This document shows positions 1-8,071 of a stretch of DNA of 55,322 nt, piece by piece. Position numbers and translations under genes: made by a program. A model generated the notes under the pieces. It was given only the letters and a program-made list of their open reading frames with translations, made no database searches and was not told the DNA's origin. Numbering within the stretch: the stretch's first letter is position 1; every line of letters starts with the position of its first letter. Origin of the DNA: a virus (taxonomy: Duplodnaviria > Caudoviricetes); the IMG/VR virus record IMGVR_UViG_3300037584_004943, positions 1-55,322 of that record; one strand, 5' to 3'.

Positions 1-175
1 TAGCAAAACGTAGTGGAAACTTGTTCTCTGGCCCATACATTAAATGTATTGGTAGCTCGTATACGTGTGTACCATTTTTACGTTGACGCTCTGTTGTTAT
101 CTCTTTGATACCTAGTATCTTGAAGATAGTCATTGCCTCGCGGGCAGATCTAATTTCTGTTGACATGTATTCCAT
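1..175 (-). CDS. hypothetical early protein, partial (runs off window)
   Basis: ATG at 175-173; hand-translated open frame MEYMSTEIRSAREAMTIFKILGIKEITTERQRKNG... continues to the window edge. Confidence 0.7.
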   Translation of the reverse strand, partial: MEYMSTEIRSAREAMTIFKILGIKEITTERQRKNGTHVYELPIHLMYGPENKFPLRFA

Positions 176-197
176 ATTATTTAATTTACTTTATAAA

Positions 198-286
198 ACG
201 AGGTGGCCAAGTGAGTAAGAACAGTCAGGCTGGGGCCTCACCTGTTAGTTCCATTTTACTGAACACGTCTCACGCGCCACACTCGT
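198..286 (-). ncRNA. unclassified structured RNA element (three-way junction) in intergenic region
   Basis: Nested complementary pairs: 198-202/282-286, 203-207/276-280, 211-215/269-273, 220-224/242-246, 227-230/235-238, 248-251/261-264. GC-rich relative to flanks; begins 4 nt after the stop of 290..505. Confidence 0.6.
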
Positions 287-289
287 ATA

Positions 290-505
290 TTATTTAAGGC
301 AAGTGCCGTAACCTTTACGACTACCTGCTTTTATTAGTGCTGCAGATTGTGCTTGCGACACTATTTGTATTGTATTACCTGTTTTGTGATTAGTGAGTGG
401 AGCACAAGCAACACGCTCGATACCACTACAACTTACACAAGTTTTGTACCCGTATTTAATTCTTATTGGGTGTACGGGCTCACCACATTTACAATAATTA
501 TTCAT
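290..505 (-). CDS. small C4 zinc-finger protein (DksA/TraR-like finger)
   Basis: CKCGEPV...R...TCVSC pattern; repeated promoter motif directly upstream. Confidence 0.6.
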   Translation of the reverse strand: MNNYCKCGEPVHPIRIKYGYKTCVSCSGIERVACAPLTNHKTGNTIQIVSQAQSAALIKAGSRKGYGTCLK

Positions 506-537
506 ATTTAATAAGCTTTTGTCATATTATATTCAAT

Positions 538-570
538 TATATTATCCAAAAGTAATCGTATTTAATTTGT
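538..570 (-). promoter_or_regulatory. putative early promoter, copy 1 (minus strand ACAnAnTnnnTACGA-N7-TGGATAATA)
   Basis: One of six 33-bp copies with invariant spacing, each upstream of a minus-strand start codon. Confidence 0.75.
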
Positions 571-572
571 AT

Positions 573-956
573 TTATTTTACGTTTGGTTTTGAAATCCAT
601 ACTTGAAATACTTTTTCTGTCGCTACAAGTTTATAAGTTGTTGCAAAAGAATCTACAGTTTTACATTGTGTTGGATTATCTCCTTGCTTAGTGCATAACT
701 CTCTAGTGTCACCTACTTCATCACTCATATTTACCGTAACGCTTTTAGCTCCAGTGTATTTCACATAGTGATAGTTTTTATTGTGTTTACCAATATAAAA
801 ATACTCTAAGTCTTCATAATTCATATCTTCACAGTATAACACCATCTCGCTTCTACCAAATATACCTTTAGTTGTTACGTCAATTATTTCTGGTATTTGT
901 GCTTTAACCACATGATTACCTAGTAGTAATGCAACTGATAATGTTAATTTTTTCAT
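573..956 (-). CDS. secreted hypothetical protein
   Basis: Sec-type signal peptide MKKLTLSVALLLGNHVVKA|Q. Confidence 0.75.
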   Translation of the reverse strand: MKKLTLSVALLLGNHVVKAQIPEIIDVTTKGIFGRSEMVLYCEDMNYEDLEYFYIGKHNKNYHYVKYTGAKSVTVNMSDEVGDTRELCTKQGDNPTQCKTVDSFATTYKLVATEKVFQVWISKPNVK

Positions 957-957
957 A

Positions 958-1440
958 TTAGTATACCTCTGTTAATTTAATTTCTCTTTTATTATTAGTA
1001 GTTTCAACATAGAATTTAGCATTATACATGTTTTCATGTAACAAGTATACTGCTAGTTCGTCGTGACCGCTTAGTTGAGCGTGTATGTTACCTTTGATAA
1101 AAGAGCTCGCTATACCACTAATTTGGTTTTTAAGACTACTAAAACCTACGATTTTCTCACCGTTTAGCTCTGCGTAGAACTCAAAACTGTCATAGCGAAC
1201 GTCGTTTATTTCAGGTAAGTTAGCGATATTTACTACATAGGCAACGCCAAAGTTAACAGTCCAGCTAGTGTCGAGACCACTACAACTTGATATTGCACGA
1301 GTAGTTACGCTGTTGTCACTCATAATTTTTACATTACAAGCATTAATTAAGTCTTGCTCATACTGCTCTTGTCTACTTTCACAAGAGGTTAATGCGAGAG
1401 TAGTTGCTACTGCCATCGCTATAAATTTGTTATTCTTCAT
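958..1440 (-). CDS. putative lipoprotein
   Basis: MKNNKFIAMAVATTLALTS|C lipobox. Confidence 0.75.
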   Translation of the reverse strand: MKNNKFIAMAVATTLALTSCESRQEQYEQDLINACNVKIMSDNSVTTRAISSCSGLDTSWTVNFGVAYVVNIANLPEINDVRYDSFEFYAELNGEKIVGFSSLKNQISGIASSFIKGNIHAQLSGHDELAVYLLHENMYNAKFYVETTNNKREIKLTEVY

Positions 1441-1510
1441 AAATATGTCTTTTTAGTGCTACTAAATAATAGTAGATTAGTAAATATACCGCTAAATCTA
1501 TTGGTGTCAT
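1430..1510 (-). CDS. 26-aa hydrophobic microprotein (not in ORF track)
   Basis: MTPIDLAVYLLIYYYLVALKRHIYEE*; start coupled to the upstream stop (TAATG) and fills the intergenic gap exactly. Confidence 0.5.
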   Translation of the reverse strand: MTPIDLAVYLLIYYYLVALKRHIYEE

Positions 1511-1770
1511 TAGTTTTCGTTTTCAATTAATATAGTTCTATTTCTTACTGTAAATAGTATTTCATCTAAGTTTTCTAAGTAACTAATTCCAGTTTCAGTA
1601 TCTACTTCACCTGATTTTATATCCTCAGTAATCCACTCTATCATATCTTCAACAGTATTTATCACTTCTAAATGGTCTTCTCTTTCGATAATCACTTTTT
1701 CATCTTGTGCTTGAGCGAAACATATTCCGCTTAGTAATACACTTGCTACAGTTAATTTAATTTTATTCAT
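1510..1770 (-). CDS. secreted acidic hypothetical protein
   Basis: Signal peptide MNKIKLTVASVLLSGICFA|Q. Confidence 0.75.
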   Translation of the reverse strand: MNKIKLTVASVLLSGICFAQAQDEKVIIEREDHLEVINTVEDMIEWITEDIKSGEVDTETGISYLENLDEILFTVRNRTILIENEN

Positions 1771-1771
1771 A

Positions 1772-1945
1772 TTAGTAGTATTTATTTGCTTGTTCTTCGT
1801 TATACTTCTCTTCTAGTTTAGCAAACCACTTATCAAACTCAGCAAACTTATCATGCTCGTGCTTTACTTTAATCTTTTCTCGTGTTACCTTATTGTCTTT
1901 GTCAATAGATAAACTTATTCCATATTGTTCCCAAGTAAATTTCAT
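1772..1945 (-). CDS. hypothetical early protein (start uncertain; MKFTWEQ start preferred over 1999)
   Basis: ORF track 1772..1999; the internal ATG avoids overlap with 1962..2198. Confidence 0.6.
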   Translation of the reverse strand: MKFTWEQYGISLSIDKDNKVTREKIKVKHEHDKFAEFDKWFAKLEEKYNEEQANKYY

Positions 1946-1961
1946 ATTATTATTCTTTATT

Positions 1962-2198
1962 TTATTCCCAAGAGCGACCATGTTTACGGTCGTCTTCAAT
2001 TAGTTTTTGTACACATTTTCCCCATGACTCACGACTCTTATATCTCTTGTCTGCACTTGACATATATTCTTCAATATACTTATCTACTTCTTCCATAGTT
2101 TCTGCACCGAGAGATGTCCACTCGCCATACTTATCTGTCATCTCTACTCTGTATATTCCAGAGTCATATTGAGTTATTTCCACTGATTCTTTATTCAT
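1962..2198 (-). CDS. hypothetical early protein
   Basis: 78-aa ORF with AT-rich leader, co-oriented with neighbours. Confidence 0.7.
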   Translation of the reverse strand: MNKESVEITQYDSGIYRVEMTDKYGEWTSLGAETMEEVDKYIEEYMSSADKRYKSRESWGKCVQKLIEDDRKHGRSWE

Positions 2199-2209
2199 AA
2201 TTGTAATTT

Positions 2210-2252
2210 TAGTAGTGTGGGTGGAATCGAACCACCATTAACCGTTCACACT
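2210..2252 (-). ncRNA. tRNA-like minihelix (acceptor-like stem + T arm; no D or anticodon arm)
   Basis: Minus strand AGTGTG-AACGGTTAAT-GGTGG-TTCGATT-CCACC-CACACT-ACTA: 6-bp stem stacked on a 5-bp stem with a canonical T loop. Confidence 0.7.
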
Positions 2253-2482
2253 TAGTCTACTTGGCACTCTCTCGCCCAAGTCGGAATATTATTTGAGTTG
2301 GTATAATTACCATACTTTTGGAAACATTCCATTTCTTCTAGTTTCTCTTGATTTAAAGAGTAAACACCGTCGTGGTCATATTTAATGACGTCACCTTTTT
2401 TGTTAGTAAACTGAATCACTAATTCTTTACCAACCATTCCTTTTGAGACTACAAATCTCTTTTTTTCTACTACATTTGACAT
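2252..2482 (-). CDS. hypothetical early protein, paralog A (of 3630..3845)
   Basis: Shares KKRFV.SK and the identical block MECFQKYGNYTNSNN with 3630..3845. Confidence 0.85.
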   Translation of the reverse strand: MSNVVEKKRFVVSKGMVGKELVIQFTNKKGDVIKYDHDGVYSLNQEKLEEMECFQKYGNYTNSNNIPTWARECQVD

Positions 2483-2489
2483 AATTCTT

Positions 2490-2684
2490 TTATTTTAGTA
2501 AGTTAATTGTTTTAGTTAATATTTCTTCTTTTTCTACCATACTACAAGTATCATAACCGAACTCTGAGTATATTTCTTGAGCCAACAAGTCTTGTATTTT
2601 ATTCCAGTATGTTACCATTATATCTGTATCACCATATTGTTTCGCGTAGTTGTAATGGTATTTTAAGGTATTTAATTTAGTCAT
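2490..2684 (-). CDS. hypothetical early protein
   Basis: 64-aa ORF directly downstream of promoter copy 2. Confidence 0.7.
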   Translation of the reverse strand: MTKLNTLKYHYNYAKQYGDTDIMVTYWNKIQDLLAQEIYSEFGYDTCSMVEKEEILTKTINLLK

Positions 2685-2705
2685 AATTTATATATTTTTA
2701 TCAGT

Positions 2706-2738
2706 TATATTATCCAATTAGTATCGTATTTAATTTGT
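2706..2738 (-). promoter_or_regulatory. putative early promoter, copy 2
   Basis: Plus strand TATATTATCCA-attagta-TCGTATTTAATTTGT. Confidence 0.75.
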
Positions 2739-2968
2739 TATTTTGATGGAGTATATTGTCCGTCAAGGTATTTATTAAACGTAGTAATATCTTTGTTGAA
2801 TGACTTTAATTCTTCTAAGTCAATATAAGTATAACCTTTTAATGAGAATTGTTTTGACAATGGTATTTCTTGATAATAAGAAGGTAATTGATGTAATTGA
2901 AAAGGTATATAAGTTTTATTGTTTAGAGTAATAATGTTAAGTTGATTTGATTTAATAGAATTTGACAT
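2738..2968 (-). CDS. hypothetical early protein
   Basis: 76-aa ORF downstream of promoter copy 3. Confidence 0.7.
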   Translation of the reverse strand: MSNSIKSNQLNIITLNNKTYIPFQLHQLPSYYQEIPLSKQFSLKGYTYIDLEELKSFNKDITTFNKYLDGQYTPSK

Positions 2969-3013
2969 TGTTAATTAATTTTTAAGTTTATTATTATTTA
3001 TTTTAAGTTCAAT

Positions 3014-3046
3014 TATATTATCCAGTTTAAGTCGTATTTAGTCTGT
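3014..3046 (-). promoter_or_regulatory. putative early promoter, copy 3
   Basis: Plus strand TATATTATCCA-gtttaag-TCGTATTTAGTCTGT. Confidence 0.75.
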
Positions 3047-3169
3047 TTTTTTATTCTCATTTATTAATACTTTGTAAGGAGTACCGTTGTAAAAACGAAG
3101 TAATTGTTTTGAATTTAGTTTGTTTAATTTCTTGTCGAAACAAACTCTGTAAGTTTTATTTTTTTTCAT
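3038..3169 (-). CDS. 43-aa basic microprotein (not in ORF track)
   Basis: Hand translation MKKNKTYRVCFDKKLNKLNSKQLLRFYNGTPYKVLINENKKTD*. Confidence 0.5.
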   Translation of the reverse strand: MKKNKTYRVCFDKKLNKLNSKQLLRFYNGTPYKVLINENKKTD

Positions 3170-3180
3170 AAGAATATTTT

Positions 3181-3306
3181 TTAATTGTTTAATAAATAGG
3201 TTATATCATCTAGAGTAGTTTCCATATATTTCTCTCGACATTCATTCTTATTATATTTGAATATATTTTTTAATAAGAATTGAAGAATTTTAATTTTTAA
3301 GGTCAT
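3181..3306 (-). CDS. 41-aa microprotein (not in ORF track)
   Basis: Hand translation MTLKIKILQFLLKNIFKYNKNECREKYMETTLDDITYLLNN*; ATG 25 nt downstream of promoter copy 4. Confidence 0.55.
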   Translation of the reverse strand: MTLKIKILQFLLKNIFKYNKNECREKYMETTLDDITYLLNN

Positions 3307-3330
3307 AATTTATTATTTATTAGATTCATA

Positions 3331-3363
3331 TATATTATCCAACGAGTATCGTATTTAGTTTGT
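3331..3363 (-). promoter_or_regulatory. putative early promoter, copy 4
   Basis: Plus strand TATATTATCCA-acgagta-TCGTATTTAGTTTGT. Confidence 0.75.
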
Positions 3364-3401
3364 ATGTAAAAGTAGGTAAATCGTTTAGTGAATAGAAATC
3401 G

Positions 3402-3512
3402 TTAGGAGTTACTACTCTCATTCTCTTGTTCTATAACGAATTTTTCCATAAAGTAACAAATTGTACCAGTAATTGTAAGAATAGTAATAATTTCTAAAAT
3501 GTATAATAACAT
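3402..3512 (-). CDS. 36-aa single-TM microprotein (not in ORF track)
   Basis: Hand translation MLLYILEIITILTITGTICYFMEKFVIEQENESSNS*; AT-rich leader like neighbours. Confidence 0.55.
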   Translation of the reverse strand: MLLYILEIITILTITGTICYFMEKFVIEQENESSNS

Positions 3513-3526
3513 ATAATTTAATTTAG

Positions 3527-3573
3527 TGTGACATTAGGTAGTTAAGTAAAGAATAGTAATACCCTTTTGTCAC
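3527..3573. repeat. 47-bp element bounded by inverted repeat GTGACA/TGTCAC, copy 1
   Basis: TGTGACATTAG....TTAAG...TAGTA..ACCCTT.TGTCAC; second copy at 4170-4215. Confidence 0.75.
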
Positions 3574-3579
3574 TGTTTT

Positions 3580-3629
3580 GTAATAGACTACCGAAGTAGT
3601 TTCGACTATTGAAGTCTCATCAGTATTAC
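3580..3629 (-). ncRNA. type I hammerhead ribozyme
   Basis: Minus strand GUAAUA-CUGAUGA-GACU(UCAAU)AGUC-GAAA-CUAC(UUCG)GUAG-UC-UAUUAC: complete conserved core, three perfect stems, GUC cleavage triplet. Confidence 0.92.
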
Positions 3630-3845
3630 TTATGAAAGTCGAGCCCACACAGGTAAGTTATTACTGTTAGTGTAGTTACCGTATTTCTGGAAACACTCCA
3701 TAGTTTCAAGTTTCTCTTGATTGATTGAGTATACATCGTCATGATTGTAAGTGAATGTACCTTTTTTAGTTGTGAATGTAATTTCTACATTTTGTCCGAT
3801 TAGAGATTTTGAGATAACGAATCTTTTCTTTGTCAATTTAGTCAT
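3630..3845 (-). CDS. hypothetical early protein, paralog B (of 2252..2482)
   Basis: See paralog A; downstream of promoter copy 5. Confidence 0.85.
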   Translation of the reverse strand: MTKLTKKRFVISKSLIGQNVEITFTTKKGTFTYNHDDVYSINQEKLETMECFQKYGNYTNSNNLPVWARLS

Positions 3846-3878
3846 AATAATTTAATTTAGTTTAATAGTTTATTTGTA

Positions 3879-3911
3879 TATATTATCCAATGTTAGTCGT
3901 ATTTATATTGT
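3879..3911 (-). promoter_or_regulatory. putative early promoter, copy 5
   Basis: Plus strand TATATTATCCA-atgttag-TCGTATTTATATTGT. Confidence 0.75.
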
Positions 3912-3998
3912 GAATAATATTGTTAGTTGTATTGTTATTGTAATAAGTTGTAGTATTATTGTATTTGTTTTATTGTATGTATTATTTGAATTTCTCAT
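3903..3998 (-). CDS. 31-aa hydrophobic microprotein (shortened from track ORF 3903..4154)
   Basis: MRNSNNTYNKTNTIILQLITITIQLTILFTI*; ATG just downstream of promoter copy 6. Confidence 0.45.
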   Translation of the reverse strand: MRNSNNTYNKTNTIILQLITITIQLTILFTI

Positions 3999-4004
3999 TA
4001 CATA

Positions 4005-4037
4005 GTTATTATCCAATACATATCGTACTAAGTTTGT
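4005..4037 (-). promoter_or_regulatory. putative early promoter, copy 6
   Basis: Plus strand GTTATTATCCA-atacata-TCGTACTAAGTTTGT. Confidence 0.7.
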
Positions 4038-4169
4038 AAAAACGTAGAAAAATACAGAAAATCGGTAAAATATGTGGCGGGCTGGTGAAATAATATTGAT
4101 TTTTGTATATGGCTGGGTATCAGGTAGGTAGGGGGCTACACAAAATATATACATTTATAACAATTTTTT

Positions 4170-4215
4170 TGTGACATTAGCCTATTAAGAAGTATTAGTA
4201 GCACCCTTGTGTCAC
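4170..4215. repeat. 46-bp element bounded by inverted repeat GTGACA/TGTCAC, copy 2
   Basis: TGTGACATTAGcctaTTAAGaagtatTAGTAgcACCCTTgTGTCAC. Confidence 0.75.
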
Positions 4216-4253
4216 GCTTTTAATATATTAACTATACGAGTAATAATATCTAT

Positions 4254-4499
4254 ATGGCACAGAAACTATCACCAGAAGCTGCTAAAGCTAAAGCCAAGAG
4301 AGATCTTGAGTATGCTAAGTCTCCTAAGCGTAAGCTAAGGAAGGCTCAGAATCAAGTAAAGCGTCGTGCTTTAAAAAAGAAAGGTTTTAGCTTATCTAAT
4401 AAAGACGTGCATCACTGTCCTGAGTCTGGTAAATTAACATTGGTGTCGGTAGCTAGTAATAGAGGTAATTTCGGTAACGGTACTAAAAACGAAGGATAA
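4254..4499 (+). CDS. small basic HNH-like protein
   Basis: KDVHH...SNRG motif typical of minimal phage HNH proteins. Confidence 0.55.
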   Translation: MAQKLSPEAAKAKAKRDLEYAKSPKRKLRKAQNQVKRRALKKKGFSLSNKDVHHCPESGKLTLVSVASNRGNFGNGTKNEG

Positions 4500-4867: not shown

Positions 4868-4884
4868 TACACATATATTAAGAC

Positions 4885-5139
4885 ATGGCGTTCAAAATGA
4901 AATATAAAAACCTTGAAGAGGTTGTAAAAGAATTAAAAGGTGCTGTTAAGGCTCATGCTAGACAAGCTAGTGTTGTAGAAGGCCATATTAAAGACATGCG
5001 TAAGTCTTCGCCTAAAAAAGGTAAGATTAGTGCTAGTTGTAAAGCTCAAGCTAAAAAGAAATTTAAAGTTTGGCCTAGCGCGTACGCTTCTGGTTGGGGT
5101 GTTAGATGTACTCGCGGTGATTTTAAGAAAAAAAAGTAA
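4885..5139 (+). CDS. small basic phage protein (MAFKMK N-terminus; WPSAYA motif)
   Basis: ORF track; Lys-rich. Confidence 0.75.
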   Translation: MAFKMKYKNLEEVVKELKGAVKAHARQASVVEGHIKDMRKSSPKKGKISASCKAQAKKKFKVWPSAYASGWGVRCTRGDFKKKK

Positions 5140-5414: not shown

Positions 5415-5448
5415 GTAATAGTATAAACATCGATAAATAAATAAAGAT

Positions 5449-5736
5449 ATGGCATTTAAAATGTATGGCAAATCGCCAATGATGAAAGCTTTAATTGGAA
5501 AGCAAAAAAATTTACCAGAAGAGTTAAAAGCTAAAATTCTAGCTGCTCCAGATGATTCACCTAAAAAAATGTATGGTAAGTCACCTAAGAAAAAATATAA
5601 GTCAGATGCTCAACGCAAAGCGGTGCACGCTAGTAAAGCTGAGTCTGGAATGAAAAATTATATGAACCCAGAAGAGTACAAGGTTTTCAACATGGGTAAT
5701 ACACCTAAGAAAATGTACGGTAAAAAGAAAAAATAA
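5449..5736 (+). CDS. basic protein with KMYGK and SPKK repeats (putative DNA-binding internal protein)
   Basis: KMYGK x3; SPKK x2 and TPKK. Confidence 0.75.
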   Translation: MAFKMYGKSPMMKALIGKQKNLPEELKAKILAAPDDSPKKMYGKSPKKKYKSDAQRKAVHASKAESGMKNYMNPEEYKVFNMGNTPKKMYGKKKK

Positions 5737-5739
5737 GAT

Positions 5740-6126
5740 ATGGCATTCAAGATGAAAGGTTTCTCTGGTTTTAAAAATAAAGACGGAGATAAAGTAAAAG
5801 TAACTGAGGCAGAATTAACAAAGCCTCGTGGATACGACCCTAGTAAAACAGGTGAGGAAAAGTATCCAGAAGTAAAAACTGTAACAGAAAAATCTCTTAA
5901 GCCTGGTTGGACACAAAAAGGCAATAACTACTTTTTTAAAGGCGATCTTGTTTCTAACCCTAACATGAGTGATGTTTTCTCAAGAAAACCAGTTAAAGCA
6001 TTACACAGAGGTGGTGAGGGTGTGTCAAGTAAAGACAGAGAGCGTTTAGGAGGAGCTGGCAGTCCAAAAGCAAACTACATGAAAGGCTATGCTAAGCCAG
6101 GAAGTAAGAAAAGAAAGAAAAAATAA
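5740..6126 (+). CDS. basic protein with MAFKMKGFSGFK N-terminus
   Basis: ORF track. Confidence 0.75.
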   Translation: MAFKMKGFSGFKNKDGDKVKVTEAELTKPRGYDPSKTGEEKYPEVKTVTEKSLKPGWTQKGNNYFFKGDLVSNPNMSDVFSRKPVKALHRGGEGVSSKDRERLGGAGSPKANYMKGYAKPGSKKRKKK

Positions 6127-6499: not shown

Positions 6500-8071
6500 A
6501 TGGAATACAATCTCCCTAGCGAGATCGTCAAAGAGCTTAATTTTGGCGATGAAGCTAAAAATAGAATTATTGCTGGCGTAGACAAGTTAGCAAAAGCAGT
6601 AAAATCAACACTAGGAGCATCTGGAAAGTGCGTTATCTACGAAGACGCGCGAGGAAACCCTGTAATTACCAAAGATGGTGTTACAGTTGCTCAATCAGTA
6701 GTGTTGCTTGACCCAGTAGAAAACTTAGGAGCAACTCTTATTAAAGAAGCTGCGCAAAACACAGTGAAAGAAGCAGGTGATGGTACCACTACGGCTACCG
6801 TCCTTGCTGAAGCACTGTTGAAAGAAGTTAATAATGAAAACTGGAAAGATGCCTCTATAAGAGAAATTAAAGAAGGCATATACTCCGGCCTTAAAAAGAT
6901 TAACGAATATCTTGACGGCAAAGCTATTAAAGTTGAAGGAGACATGCTTAAAAGTGTATCTGCTATCTCATGCAATAATGATGAACTATTAGGATCGATT
7001 ATCGCTGAAGCTTACGATAAAGTAGGTAAAGACGGCGTGGTATTGATGGAAACATCTGAAACTGAAGAAACCTACGTTGAATTAGTAGATGGCGTTCAAA
7101 TAGATTGTGGATTAACTTCTCCACATTTCGTTACAAACACAGAGAAACATAAATGTGAACTAGAAAATCCTTTAGTTCTTATAGTATCCTCTGAAATCCC
7201 TAACATACGTAAAATCCAAACAATATTAGAACATGTTATCAAACAAGGTAGAGCCTTACTTATTGTAGCACCTGTTGCTCAGCAAGTAAAATCTGCGTTA
7301 CTTATGAATAAAGTAAAAGGTAACATTAAGGTTAACATTGTTGATCTACCAGGCTTTGGACCTACTAAGAAGGACTGTACTGAAGATTTAGCTATATTAA
7401 CCGGTGCTACTGTAATAAATGAAGAGCTAGGTGATGATTTAGATCTTATTAGCGTTGATCATTTAGGAGAAGCTGAGTTTGCTACTACAGATGATAAGAG
7501 CACTGTTATAACGCTAGAAGAGATGAACGAAGATATTGAAGAGCGTATTGATGAGGTAGTCAAGAAGATCGCTGATGAAAAGAACGGGTTTTTAAAGAAA
7601 AAGCTAGAGTCTAGATTAGCCATGCTATCTGGTAGCGTTGGCATCATTAGAGTTGGCGCTGATTCTAAAGTAGAGCTTAAAGAAAAGAAAGATCGCGTTG
7701 AAGACGCTATATATGCAACAAAAGCGGCACTGAAAGAAGGCATTGTTCCCGGCGGTGGTGTAGCGTTGTTAAACGCCTCTCAAAAAATTTCGACCGACAA
7801 CGTCGGCGAAGAGATTCTTCTAAAAGCTATTAGAACTCCTTTCGACACTATATTAGCAAATGCTGGTATAGAAGTTATGGATGGAACTGTAGATCATGAA
7901 GGTTATGGTAAAGATGCTATAACTGGAGAAAGAATTGATATGATCAAATCAGGCATCGTAGATCCCGTACTTGTTACCAAGTCGGCGCTGAAAAACGCGG
8001 TGAGCGTGGTATCAACCATCATCTCTGCAGATTGTGTAATTTCAAACATCCGAGTAAATGAAGGCAGTTAA
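6500..8071 (+). CDS. groEL: phage chaperonin GroEL
   Basis: ITKDGVTVA, AGDGTTTATVLA, KEKKDRVEDA, EGIVPGGG motifs; no C-terminal GGM tail. Confidence 0.97.
   Translation: MEYNLPSEIVKELNFGDEAKNRIIAGVDKLAKAVKSTLGASGKCVIYEDARGNPVITKDGVTVAQSVVLLDPVENLGATLIKEAAQNTVKEAGDGTTTATVLAEALLKEVNNENWKDASIREIKEGIYSGLKKINEYLDGKAIKVEGDMLKSVSAISCNNDELLGSIIAEAYDKVGKDGVVLMETSETEETYVELVDGVQIDCGLTSPHFVTNTEKHKCELENPLVLIVSSEIPNIRKIQTILEHVIKQGRALLIVAPVAQQVKSALLMNKVKGNIKVNIVDLPGFGPTKKDCTEDLAILTGATVINEELGDDLDLISVDHLGEAEFATTDDKSTVITLEEMNEDIEERIDEVVKKIADEKNGFLKKKLESRLAMLSGSVGIIRVGADSKVELKEKKDRVEDAIYATKAALKEGIVPGGGVALLNASQKISTDNVGEEILLKAIRTPFDTILANAGIEVMDGTVDHEGYGKDAITGERIDMIKSGIVDPVLVTKSALKNAVSVVSTIISADCVISNIRVNEGS

Follow-up and report, generated by a model that had tools for sequence, protein, structure and literature searches.

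A type I hammerhead ribozyme, probably self-cleaving, directly behind the stop codon of a small phage gene

A phage genome from the IMG/VR collection carries on its minus strand, between the small genes ORF71 and ORF36, a type I hammerhead ribozyme, which is probably genuine and constitutively self-cleaving and would thus separate the ORF71 and ORF36 cistrons in the leftward transcript. Its anatomy, its conservation with compensatory changes and its membership in a subclass of hammerheads with the same gene-boundary placement are seen directly in the sequences compared; the chemistry of cleavage, the fates of both products and the benefit to the phage are what we infer. The stretch of DNA analyzed, in the following called the window, is a whole IMG/VR virus record of 55,322 bp with a completeness estimate of 89%.

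The window encodes a large terminase, a portal protein, structural proteins, a GroEL-like chaperonin, a ribonucleotide reductase and MazG. Since the terminase is 45% identical to the terminases of cultured Flavobacterium phages (Elemovirus) and also matches those of Cellulophaga, Tenacibaculum and Maribacter phages, the host is probably a marine member of the Flavobacteriia. Positions 1-4154 are occupied by small ORFs on the minus strand. The ribozyme is located between two of these, with all three elements on the same strand, as is characteristic of gene-flanking phage hammerheads. Searches of Pfam and PHROGs revealed no family for ORF71, its paralog or the small neighboring ORFs, and in the cultured-phage collection there were zero matches both to window 3000-4200 (blastn) and to ORF71 (tblastn). 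The paralog is a 76-aa ORF (2482..2252, minus strand; repeat D5) that has in common with ORF71 the sequence ...MECFQKYGNYTNSNN.P.WAR; the C-termini have diverged, and a ribozyme follows ORF71 only. No tRNAs were found in the window and there is, therefore, no link to tRNA processing.

Read from 3629 to 3580 on the minus strand, the ribozyme is composed of GUAAUA, CUGAUGA, GACU-UCAAU-AGUC, GAA, ACUAC-UUCG-GUAGU, C and UAUUAC (Table 1). It has all the bases of the hammerhead core (C3 U4 G5 A6 N7 G8 A9, G12 A13 A14, A15.1-U16.1, and at position 17 an H, which is not G), the consensus being that given in PMC3088659. The three helices of 6, 4 and 5 bp show covariation at orthologous sites, and the topology is that of type I: the strands of stem I are at both ends, leaving this stem open, and the loops UCAAU and UUCG close stems II and III. 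Every element of the core and the stems had been described correctly in the initial annotation, which also had stem I begin immediately behind a stop codon; this is the TAA at 3632-3630 that ends ORF71 (3845..3630). The assignment to type I with predicted cleavage after C3586, made at the same time, is supported by the anatomy, by compensatory changes that accompany the conservation at the gene end, by a covariance model built independently (R2) and by one RNA contig ending at 3585 (see below). Because flanking A residues are conserved class-wide, the comparison shows a functional unit that is longer than 3629..3580; judged from the sequence, it extends by A3630 on the 5′ side and by AA 3579-3578 on the 3′ side.

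Table 1. Positions of the ribozyme, its parts and the neighboring elements in the window.
Feature	Position	Strand	Remarks
Whole ribozyme unit	3577..3632	minus	Stop codon/5′ flank, type I hammerhead and AAA 3′ flank; covariance-model match
TAA stop of ORF71	3630..3632	minus	Last A (3630) is the class-conserved A just 5′ of stem I
Stem I, 5′ strand GUAAUA	3624..3629	minus	6 bp; 3629-3624 pairs with 3585-3580
Catalytic core CUGAUGA (C3-A9)	3617..3623	minus	Invariant in alignment A1 except position 7
Stem-loop II GACU/AGUC	3604..3616	minus	4 bp, 5-nt loop UCAAU; loop U3612 and U3608 class-conserved
Core G12 A13 A14 (GAA)	3601..3603	minus	Consensus match
Stem III (A15.1-U16.1 plus CUAC/GUAG)	3587..3600	minus	5 bp, UUCG cap; A3600-U3587 pair
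Predicted cleavage site C17 (3586)/U1.1 (3585)	3585..3586	minus	From hammerhead consensus; 5′-OH of the 3′ product predicted at 3585
Stem I, 3′ strand UAUUAC, and conserved AA flank	3578..3585	minus	Strand 3585-3580, flank 3579-3578; from sequence
ORF71	3845..3630	minus	71 aa; ribozyme at its 3′ end; from ORF list
ORF36, downstream cistron	3402..3512	minus	36 aa, hydrophobic; ATG 73 nt past the cleavage site
Promoter-like repeat, one of six	3875..3912	minus	Ends ~30 nt upstream of the ORF71 start; families D2/D3
Optional conserved module	3528..3573	minus	~46 nt between ribozyme and next ORF; inverted arms GUGACA...UGUCAC, 6-7 bp

The minimum-free-energy fold of the 56-nt RNA 3632..3577 is the hammerhead (−9.5 kcal/mol), with pair probabilities of 0.64-0.87 in stem I. 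Product release should be easy, since the stem I duplex amounts to only −2.2 kcal/mol. In contexts of 71 and 161 nt, competing pairings arise and the predicted minimum-free-energy fold is without stem I; shuffled sequences fold as favorably as the 71-nt region (z = −0.03). An alternative hairpin predicted in the 71-nt context (UCAU.AGU...ACU.AUGA) was set aside as incidental; by eye, it is not conserved in relatives.

A regex scan requiring at least 4, 3 and 3 bp in stems I, II and III matched the window only at 3629..3580, and the same loose rules found one or more matches in 2 of 300 random windows generated with a first-order Markov model. Covariance model R1 gave 72.9 bits for 3632..3577. 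Model R2, built from 59 hammerheads of other contigs with the window and every ORF71-linked copy left out, gave 69.7 bits for the same positions (E = 4.6e-15), the sole match with E < 0.7 in 55,322 bp, the next best being 13.8 bits. Further hammerheads were searched for in the window with filters off, and R1 and R2 returned noise only (at most 13.3 and 13.8 bits, respectively). Processing to unit-length or circular RNA by paired ribozymes is unsupported in this phage, of which the window has one hammerhead.

When the whole window was searched with Rfam 15 at the gathering score, nothing was reported. In E-value mode the region 3300-3900 matched only RF03152 (RAGATH-1-hammerhead), with 23.2 bits versus a cut-off of 56.3 (E = 0.18); RF00163 (Hammerhead_1, gathering score 34 bits) was unlisted there at E ≤ 10. 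These are the only two Rfam families with sub-threshold matches, and they have the catalytic core and the open-stem-I topology in common with the ribozyme and its subclass (see below). The 56.3 bits of RF03152 include an upstream hairpin; the window ribozyme stays below this score and the hairpin has no convincing counterpart in the window. Filing under RAGATH-1-hammerhead was rejected, the match being weak and sub-threshold. The initial annotation had proposed a check with hammerhead models: R2 found the site as its sole significant match in the window, and the Rfam families all remained below the gathering score.

A search of IMG/VR with the ORF71 protein yielded 70 related loci. By regex scan and R1, hammerheads are present in 18 of these loci, and in 17 of the 70 at the 3′ end of the ORF71 relative. 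All three stems differ among the orthologous sites and pairing is kept: stem I is GUAAUA/UAUUAC or GUUACA/UGUAAC, stem II is GACU/AGUC or GAUC/GAUC, and stem III is ACUAC/GUAGU, ACGCAU/AUGCGU, ACGCC/GGCGU or ACAC../..GUGU. These are, at the level of sequence, compensatory changes. The TAA is inside stem I (G-UAA-UA) in 12 of the 17 ORF71-linked copies and abuts it in 3 (gap 0/−1); in the remaining two the gap is 2 nt and 90 nt. In locus L009, ~90 nt (3217-3306, starting GUAAUACUGAUGAGAUC...) lie between the stop of the ORF71 relative and an intact hammerhead; this stretch looks like a degenerate or disrupted second hammerhead, for which R1 gives no score at E ≤ 0.01.

The 53-nt ribozyme unit is 100% identical to that of the window in 8 loci, in which the adjoining ORF DNA is just 72-87% identical and the downstream DNA is unrelated (41-58% identity). 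A contig from the public RNA run X2 is likewise identical at 3577-3632, joined to a strongly diverged ORF. An identical unit amid diverged flanks indicates strong selection, transfer of the module from phage to phage, or a combination of the two. In 48 related loci with at least 80 nt downstream, the ribozyme is absent from the end of the ORF71 relative and other elements are found in the same slot. Because of these 48 assessable loci the ribozyme is considered dispensable, or optional, at the ORF71 gene end.

The ribozyme-less loci were also inspected by eye. Among L010-L066, the last codons and the stop are part of a small hairpin, the stem of which varies in sequence yet pairs (CACAG/CUGUG, CUGC/GCAG, GAGAC/GUCUC, UGAGG/CCUCA). 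In another group of these loci, two TGTATAGCA repeats come after a hairpin rich in GC.

The ribozyme is one member of a larger subclass. When IMG/VR was scanned with a pattern of core and stem II, at least 119 stretches matched, and 91 of the 119 listed contain one or more type I hammerheads built in the same way; several are frequently present in one contig, the maximum being 11. Pooled, these loci and the window hold at least 185 hammerhead matches in 107 sources, at least 155 of them unique in context. Examples with many copies are L180 (up to 11 regex matches in 13.6 kb), L097, L171 and L084; copies in one contig often have the same stem I sequence, as though punctuating a run of small genes. 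Rfam at the gathering score gave no hammerhead match in nine loci holding ~38 copies found by regex; below threshold, members of the subclass reach 19.9-27.4 bits with RF00163 (cut-off 34) and 25.9-29.5 bits with RF03152 (cut-off 56.3).

Among the matches listed, 101 combine a stem-loop II of 13 nt with 6 bp or more in stem I. In this consensus subset the base preceding stem I (−1) is A in 100 of 101 members, the two bases following it are A in 92 (+1) and 74 (+2), G-C is the outermost pair of stem I in 90, and the consensus of loop II is U (100), N, A (93), A (72), U (86). Position 9 of loop II co-varies with base +1 (U/A 86, A/U 6, G/U 2, again among the matches listed; Fisher p = 2e-9, ignoring relatedness). 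For fast cleavage at physiological Mg2+, hammerheads need a tertiary contact between stems I and II, and the covariation suggests that loop II contacts the ends of stem I; the A/U combination may, however, simply reflect a seventh pair in this stem. Alignment of 69 members gave 99.8% pairing, and 13 of the 15 pairs, including all 6 of stem I, have changed on both sides, counts that are partly circular since the members were pre-selected by a scan requiring pairing.

The placement is regular, too. Among the matches listed, 142 copies are preceded by an open frame of 50 codons or more, and in 104 of these 142 the stop begins within −8 to +8 of the first nucleotide of stem I. In the same set the offsets peak at −3 (UAA-G, as in the window; 20), −2 (UA-G; 19), +2 (G-UAA; 13), +4 (8) and +8 (the UGA of CUGAUGA; 17). 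The initial annotation had pointed out that a terminating ribosome would overlap the ribozyme; this geometry is correct and, as shown by these offsets and by the TAA inside stem I in 12 of the 17 orthologous copies, applies to the subclass as a whole. The next ATG (of an ORF of at least 30 codons) follows 20-39 nt past the cut in 99 of 155 of the matches listed, so that the intergenic region is essentially the ribozyme plus a short A-rich leader. In the window this distance is 73 nt because the optional 46-nt module at 3573-3528 intervenes.

The cultured Flavobacterium phage vB_FspP_elemoA_7-9A (host Flavobacterium sp. BAL314) has one copy of the subclass at NC_055852.1 17287-17350, minus strand (56 bits with R1). 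The first nucleotide of its stem I is the G of a TAG stop, and the ATG of gp69 is 28 nt past the predicted cut. The hammerhead is unannotated in this genome (L191 2961-3068, corresponding to NC_055852.1 17275-17382). Annotated over it on the opposite strand is gp68, a 35-aa hypothetical CDS that is probably spurious. The TAG that overlaps stem I terminates a 21-codon ORF of the ribozyme strand that is missing from the annotation.

Two public RNA runs, X1 and X2, cover small shares of the window, both as assembled contigs, for which depth, strand and absence of cover are unusable. One contig of the marine metatranscriptome X1 (record 2), 163 nt in length, aligns with 3427..3585 (2 mismatches, 1 gap) and thus ends where the 3′ product is predicted to start; at one or the other end of the contig, three letters are unaligned. 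X1 has no cover from 3586 to ~3697, which with assembled contigs is not evidence of absence. The contig end at 3585 is a weak hint at cleavage in vivo: it is one contig with a depth of ~3 from one study, assembled contigs cannot show true RNA ends, and carry-over of DNA into the X1 library is possible. An assembly artefact, in the form of a de Bruijn branch at the edge of the shared ribozyme sequence, would be expected near 3606 and not at 3585, and an X2 contig does end near 3606.

The region around the ribozyme contains six copies of a direct repeat of ~38 nt (534-571, 2702-2739, 3010-3047, 3327-3364, 3875-3912 and 4001-4038), the approximate sequence of which, on the minus strand as the coding one, is AAATACGA...TTGGATAATATA. 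Five copies are followed, 18-42 nt past their end, by the start of a minus-strand ORF, and the sixth, 4001-4038, lies inside a doubtful ORF (4154..3903). The repeat looks like a phage promoter. The motif also occurs directly after the ribozyme in loci L002 and L030 and after the stop of the ORF71 relative in L018, L038 and L046. A sigma-70 promoter scan of 2200-4400 was uninformative (14 sites versus 14.3 expected), and a scan for terminator-like sites found none on the coding strand of this region. Since there is a single hammerhead and other gene boundaries in the region carry promoter-like repeats, the phage does not generally use ribozymes to punctuate its operon.

The module between ribozyme and ORF36 has a second copy in the window at 4215-4171 (minus strand) in a divergent intergenic region. 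It is present in many of the loci L010-L067, and in most ribozyme-less relatives it directly follows the stop of the ORF71 relative. The exact pattern TGTGACA-N30-45-TGTCACA has no match in the window because there the arms of the module are one base shorter. Within the module, at 3561-3556, is a second UAUUAC, the same as the 3′ strand of stem I; it may be coincidental, or the 5′ strand of stem I could pair with it as an alternative. Modules linked to hammerheads read (A/G)UUAC and most modules of ribozyme-less loci CUAC, L067 being an exception.

In line with the proposal made in 2011 for prophage hammerheads, the role of the ribozyme is most likely the processing of the transcript between ORF71 and ORF36. 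The leftward transcript would probably start from the promoter-like repeat ~30 nt upstream of ORF71. Once ~56 nt beyond the ORF71 stop have emerged, the three-way junction would fold, probably assisted by contacts of loop II (U3612, U3608) with A3630 and A3579, which flank the 6-bp stem I, and self-cleavage would take place between C3586 and U3585. With stem I as the open one, the body of the ribozyme would stay on the ORF71 message, which would thus keep nearly the whole ribozyme as a structured 3′ end with two hairpins and a 2′,3′-cyclic phosphate. The AU-rich stem I of 6 bp should be weak enough to release the downstream part, and the ORF36 message would be freed with a 5′-OH and only six ribozyme nucleotides. 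The effect would be that the cistrons are physically parted and their stability and translation uncoupled. As there is no promoter-like repeat between the ribozyme and the ATG of ORF36, expression of ORF36 in the window phage would depend on the cleaved transcript.

Other explanations have to be weighed against constitutive processing. A chance match to the hammerhead consensus without activity might be suspected from the AT-rich sequence with its short stems, from the lack of an Rfam match at the gathering score and from a folding z-score near 0; it is so improbable as to be negligible, since random windows contained any match in just 2 of 300 cases, even with the looser rules, the independent model R2 gave 69.7 bits, and the orthologous sites are conserved with compensatory changes. 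The comparative sequence data, as we read them, exclude a chance origin. More has to be said about a coupling of cleavage to translation, the idea put forward in the initial annotation. When terminating on ORF71, a ribosome would melt stem I, the core and the contact of A(−1), cleavage would be confined to ribosome-free intervals, and the ratio of processed to polycistronic RNA would report the translation load of ORF71. The TAA at 3632-3630, which abuts stem I and contributes the class-conserved A(−1), fits such gating, as do the TAA inside stem I (G-UAA-UA) at 12 of 17 orthologous loci, the stops that include or pass position −1 in 79 of 142 upstream ORFs among the matches listed (17 of these being the UGA of the core) and the like arrangement in the cultured Flavobacterium phage, where the G of TAG is the first nucleotide of stem I. 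Against this, the position of the stop varies widely (−8 to +8 and beyond) and each of the three frames occurs, as compaction or insertion at gene ends would lead one to expect, and from the sequence two of the three frames hit a stop within the ribozyme regardless. Moreover, termination is brief and cleavage irreversible, from which weak gating at best would result. Coupling to translation is thus geometrically plausible, compaction or gene-end insertion fits the scatter of the stops at least as well, and we regard translation-gated cleavage as rather unlikely. Also unlikely, and quite clearly so, is the more general idea of a large phage type I hammerhead family built with the upstream stop as one of its parts, be it as A(−1), in stem I or as the UGA of the core, in which folding and termination would be mutually exclusive and together form a translation-sensing switch for cistron linkage.

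The ribozyme could, alternatively, be an active cassette that is essentially selfish or neutral: recombination would have carried it between related phages, gene ends would tolerate it, and expression would gain nothing adaptive from it. The same gene end is found with the ribozyme (17 loci) and without it (48 assessable loci), several alternative elements fill the same intergenic slot, and the identical 53-nt unit next to ORF DNA of 72-87% and unrelated downstream DNA of 41-58% identity, or in the X2 contig (identical at 3577-3632) next to a strongly diverged ORF, is what such spreading would leave behind. The tight and regular placement relative to the stop and to the next start codon speaks against a mere passenger, which we consider a fairly unlikely explanation. 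Finally, the ribozyme might insulate against, or down-regulate, transcriptional read-through: exposure of a 5′-OH would lead to degradation or standardization of the read-through RNA, and the downstream genes would be expressed from their own promoter-like elements. Engineered hammerhead insulators between promoter and coding sequence resemble the window ribozyme in that self-cleavage yields a defined short 5′ leader for the downstream cistron, independent of what is upstream; these are synthetic, whereas the element in the window is natural and would also leave a structured 3′ end on the upstream mRNA. A promoter-like repeat directly after the ribozyme in L002 and L030, such repeats before most of the small ORFs and no terminator-like site on the minus strand of 2200-4400 are in favor of insulation. 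But in the window and in 8 relatives there is no promoter-like repeat between the ribozyme and the next ATG, and we regard the insulator as unlikely. Constitutive processing between the two cistrons is the reading that we prefer.

Hammerheads flanking genes in DNA of phage origin were first described in 2011; the window ribozyme is a further example. As described in the main text of PMC3088659, Perreault et al. found clustered hammerheads flanking prophage genes, some of which cleave in vitro and in E. coli, and proposed that they cut long phage transcripts into gene-length mRNAs; all three topologies, including type I, occur in bacteria. The window ribozyme resembles these prophage hammerheads in being a consensus hammerhead between phage genes. 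It differs in that it is a single copy in the contig of a lytic-type marine phage, whereas those are clustered, and it belongs to a sharply delimited subclass with a 6-bp stem I flanked by A, a 4-bp stem II and a U-N-A-A-U loop. The upstream stop overlaps its 5′ edge, and the main text of PMC3088659 never uses the term "stop codon". The same text describes HHphage in the early region of haloviruses HF1/HF2, 13 nt upstream of a start codon, with a mapped transcript 5′ end at most 3 nt from the cleavage site. HHphage is from an archaeal virus and has a variant core with insertions, for which salt-dependent activity was proposed (PMC3088659); the window ribozyme, in contrast, has a canonical core, and the distance to the next ATG is 73 nt, compared with 20-39 nt in most class members among the matches listed. 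In RNA mycoviruses, according to passages of PMC13725137, a type I hammerhead with a long helix III fills the short intergenic region and cuts a few nucleotides before the start of the next ORF; it is said there to resemble the type I hammerheads of some bacteria and phages. Those mycovirus elements are part of the RNA genomes of fungal viruses and are proposed to promote eukaryotic translation initiation (PMC13725137), whereas the window element is from a DNA phage.

The roles of self-cleaving ribozymes in bacteria and phages are still called unknown in passages of PMC6765202 and PMC10085705, and the remark in the initial annotation that the roles of phage hammerheads are mostly unresolved agrees with these and with the main text of PMC3088659. 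Our literature search, which covered main texts, found no paper on stop codons embedded in phage hammerheads and none on hammerheads in Flavobacterium phages; the subclass may already be contained in supplements such as Dataset S1 of PMC3088659. The general picture of hammerheads is unchanged by the window ribozyme. What it adds is a well-defined and abundant subclass, uncalled by standard Rfam annotation at curated cut-offs, with a regular architecture in which the stop is embedded in the 5′ edge of the ribozyme and the next start follows 20-39 nt past the cut, and with a candidate tertiary contact between loop II and the ends of stem I. With vB_FspP_elemoA_7-9A on Flavobacterium sp. BAL314, a cultured phage-host pair harboring the same subclass is at hand for direct functional study.

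Two observations concern the neighborhood of the small-gene region. The GroEL-like chaperonin is encoded at 6500-8071 (PHROG 5725, E = 4.5e-132) and adjoins very large ORFs of 2104, 1225, 2646 and 1059 aa. Three plus-strand ORFs open with the motif ATGGC.TT.AA.ATG (repeat D8; 4875-4904, 5439-5468 and 5730-5759), suggesting that a small family of lysine-rich paralogs is encoded immediately to the right of the divergent region.
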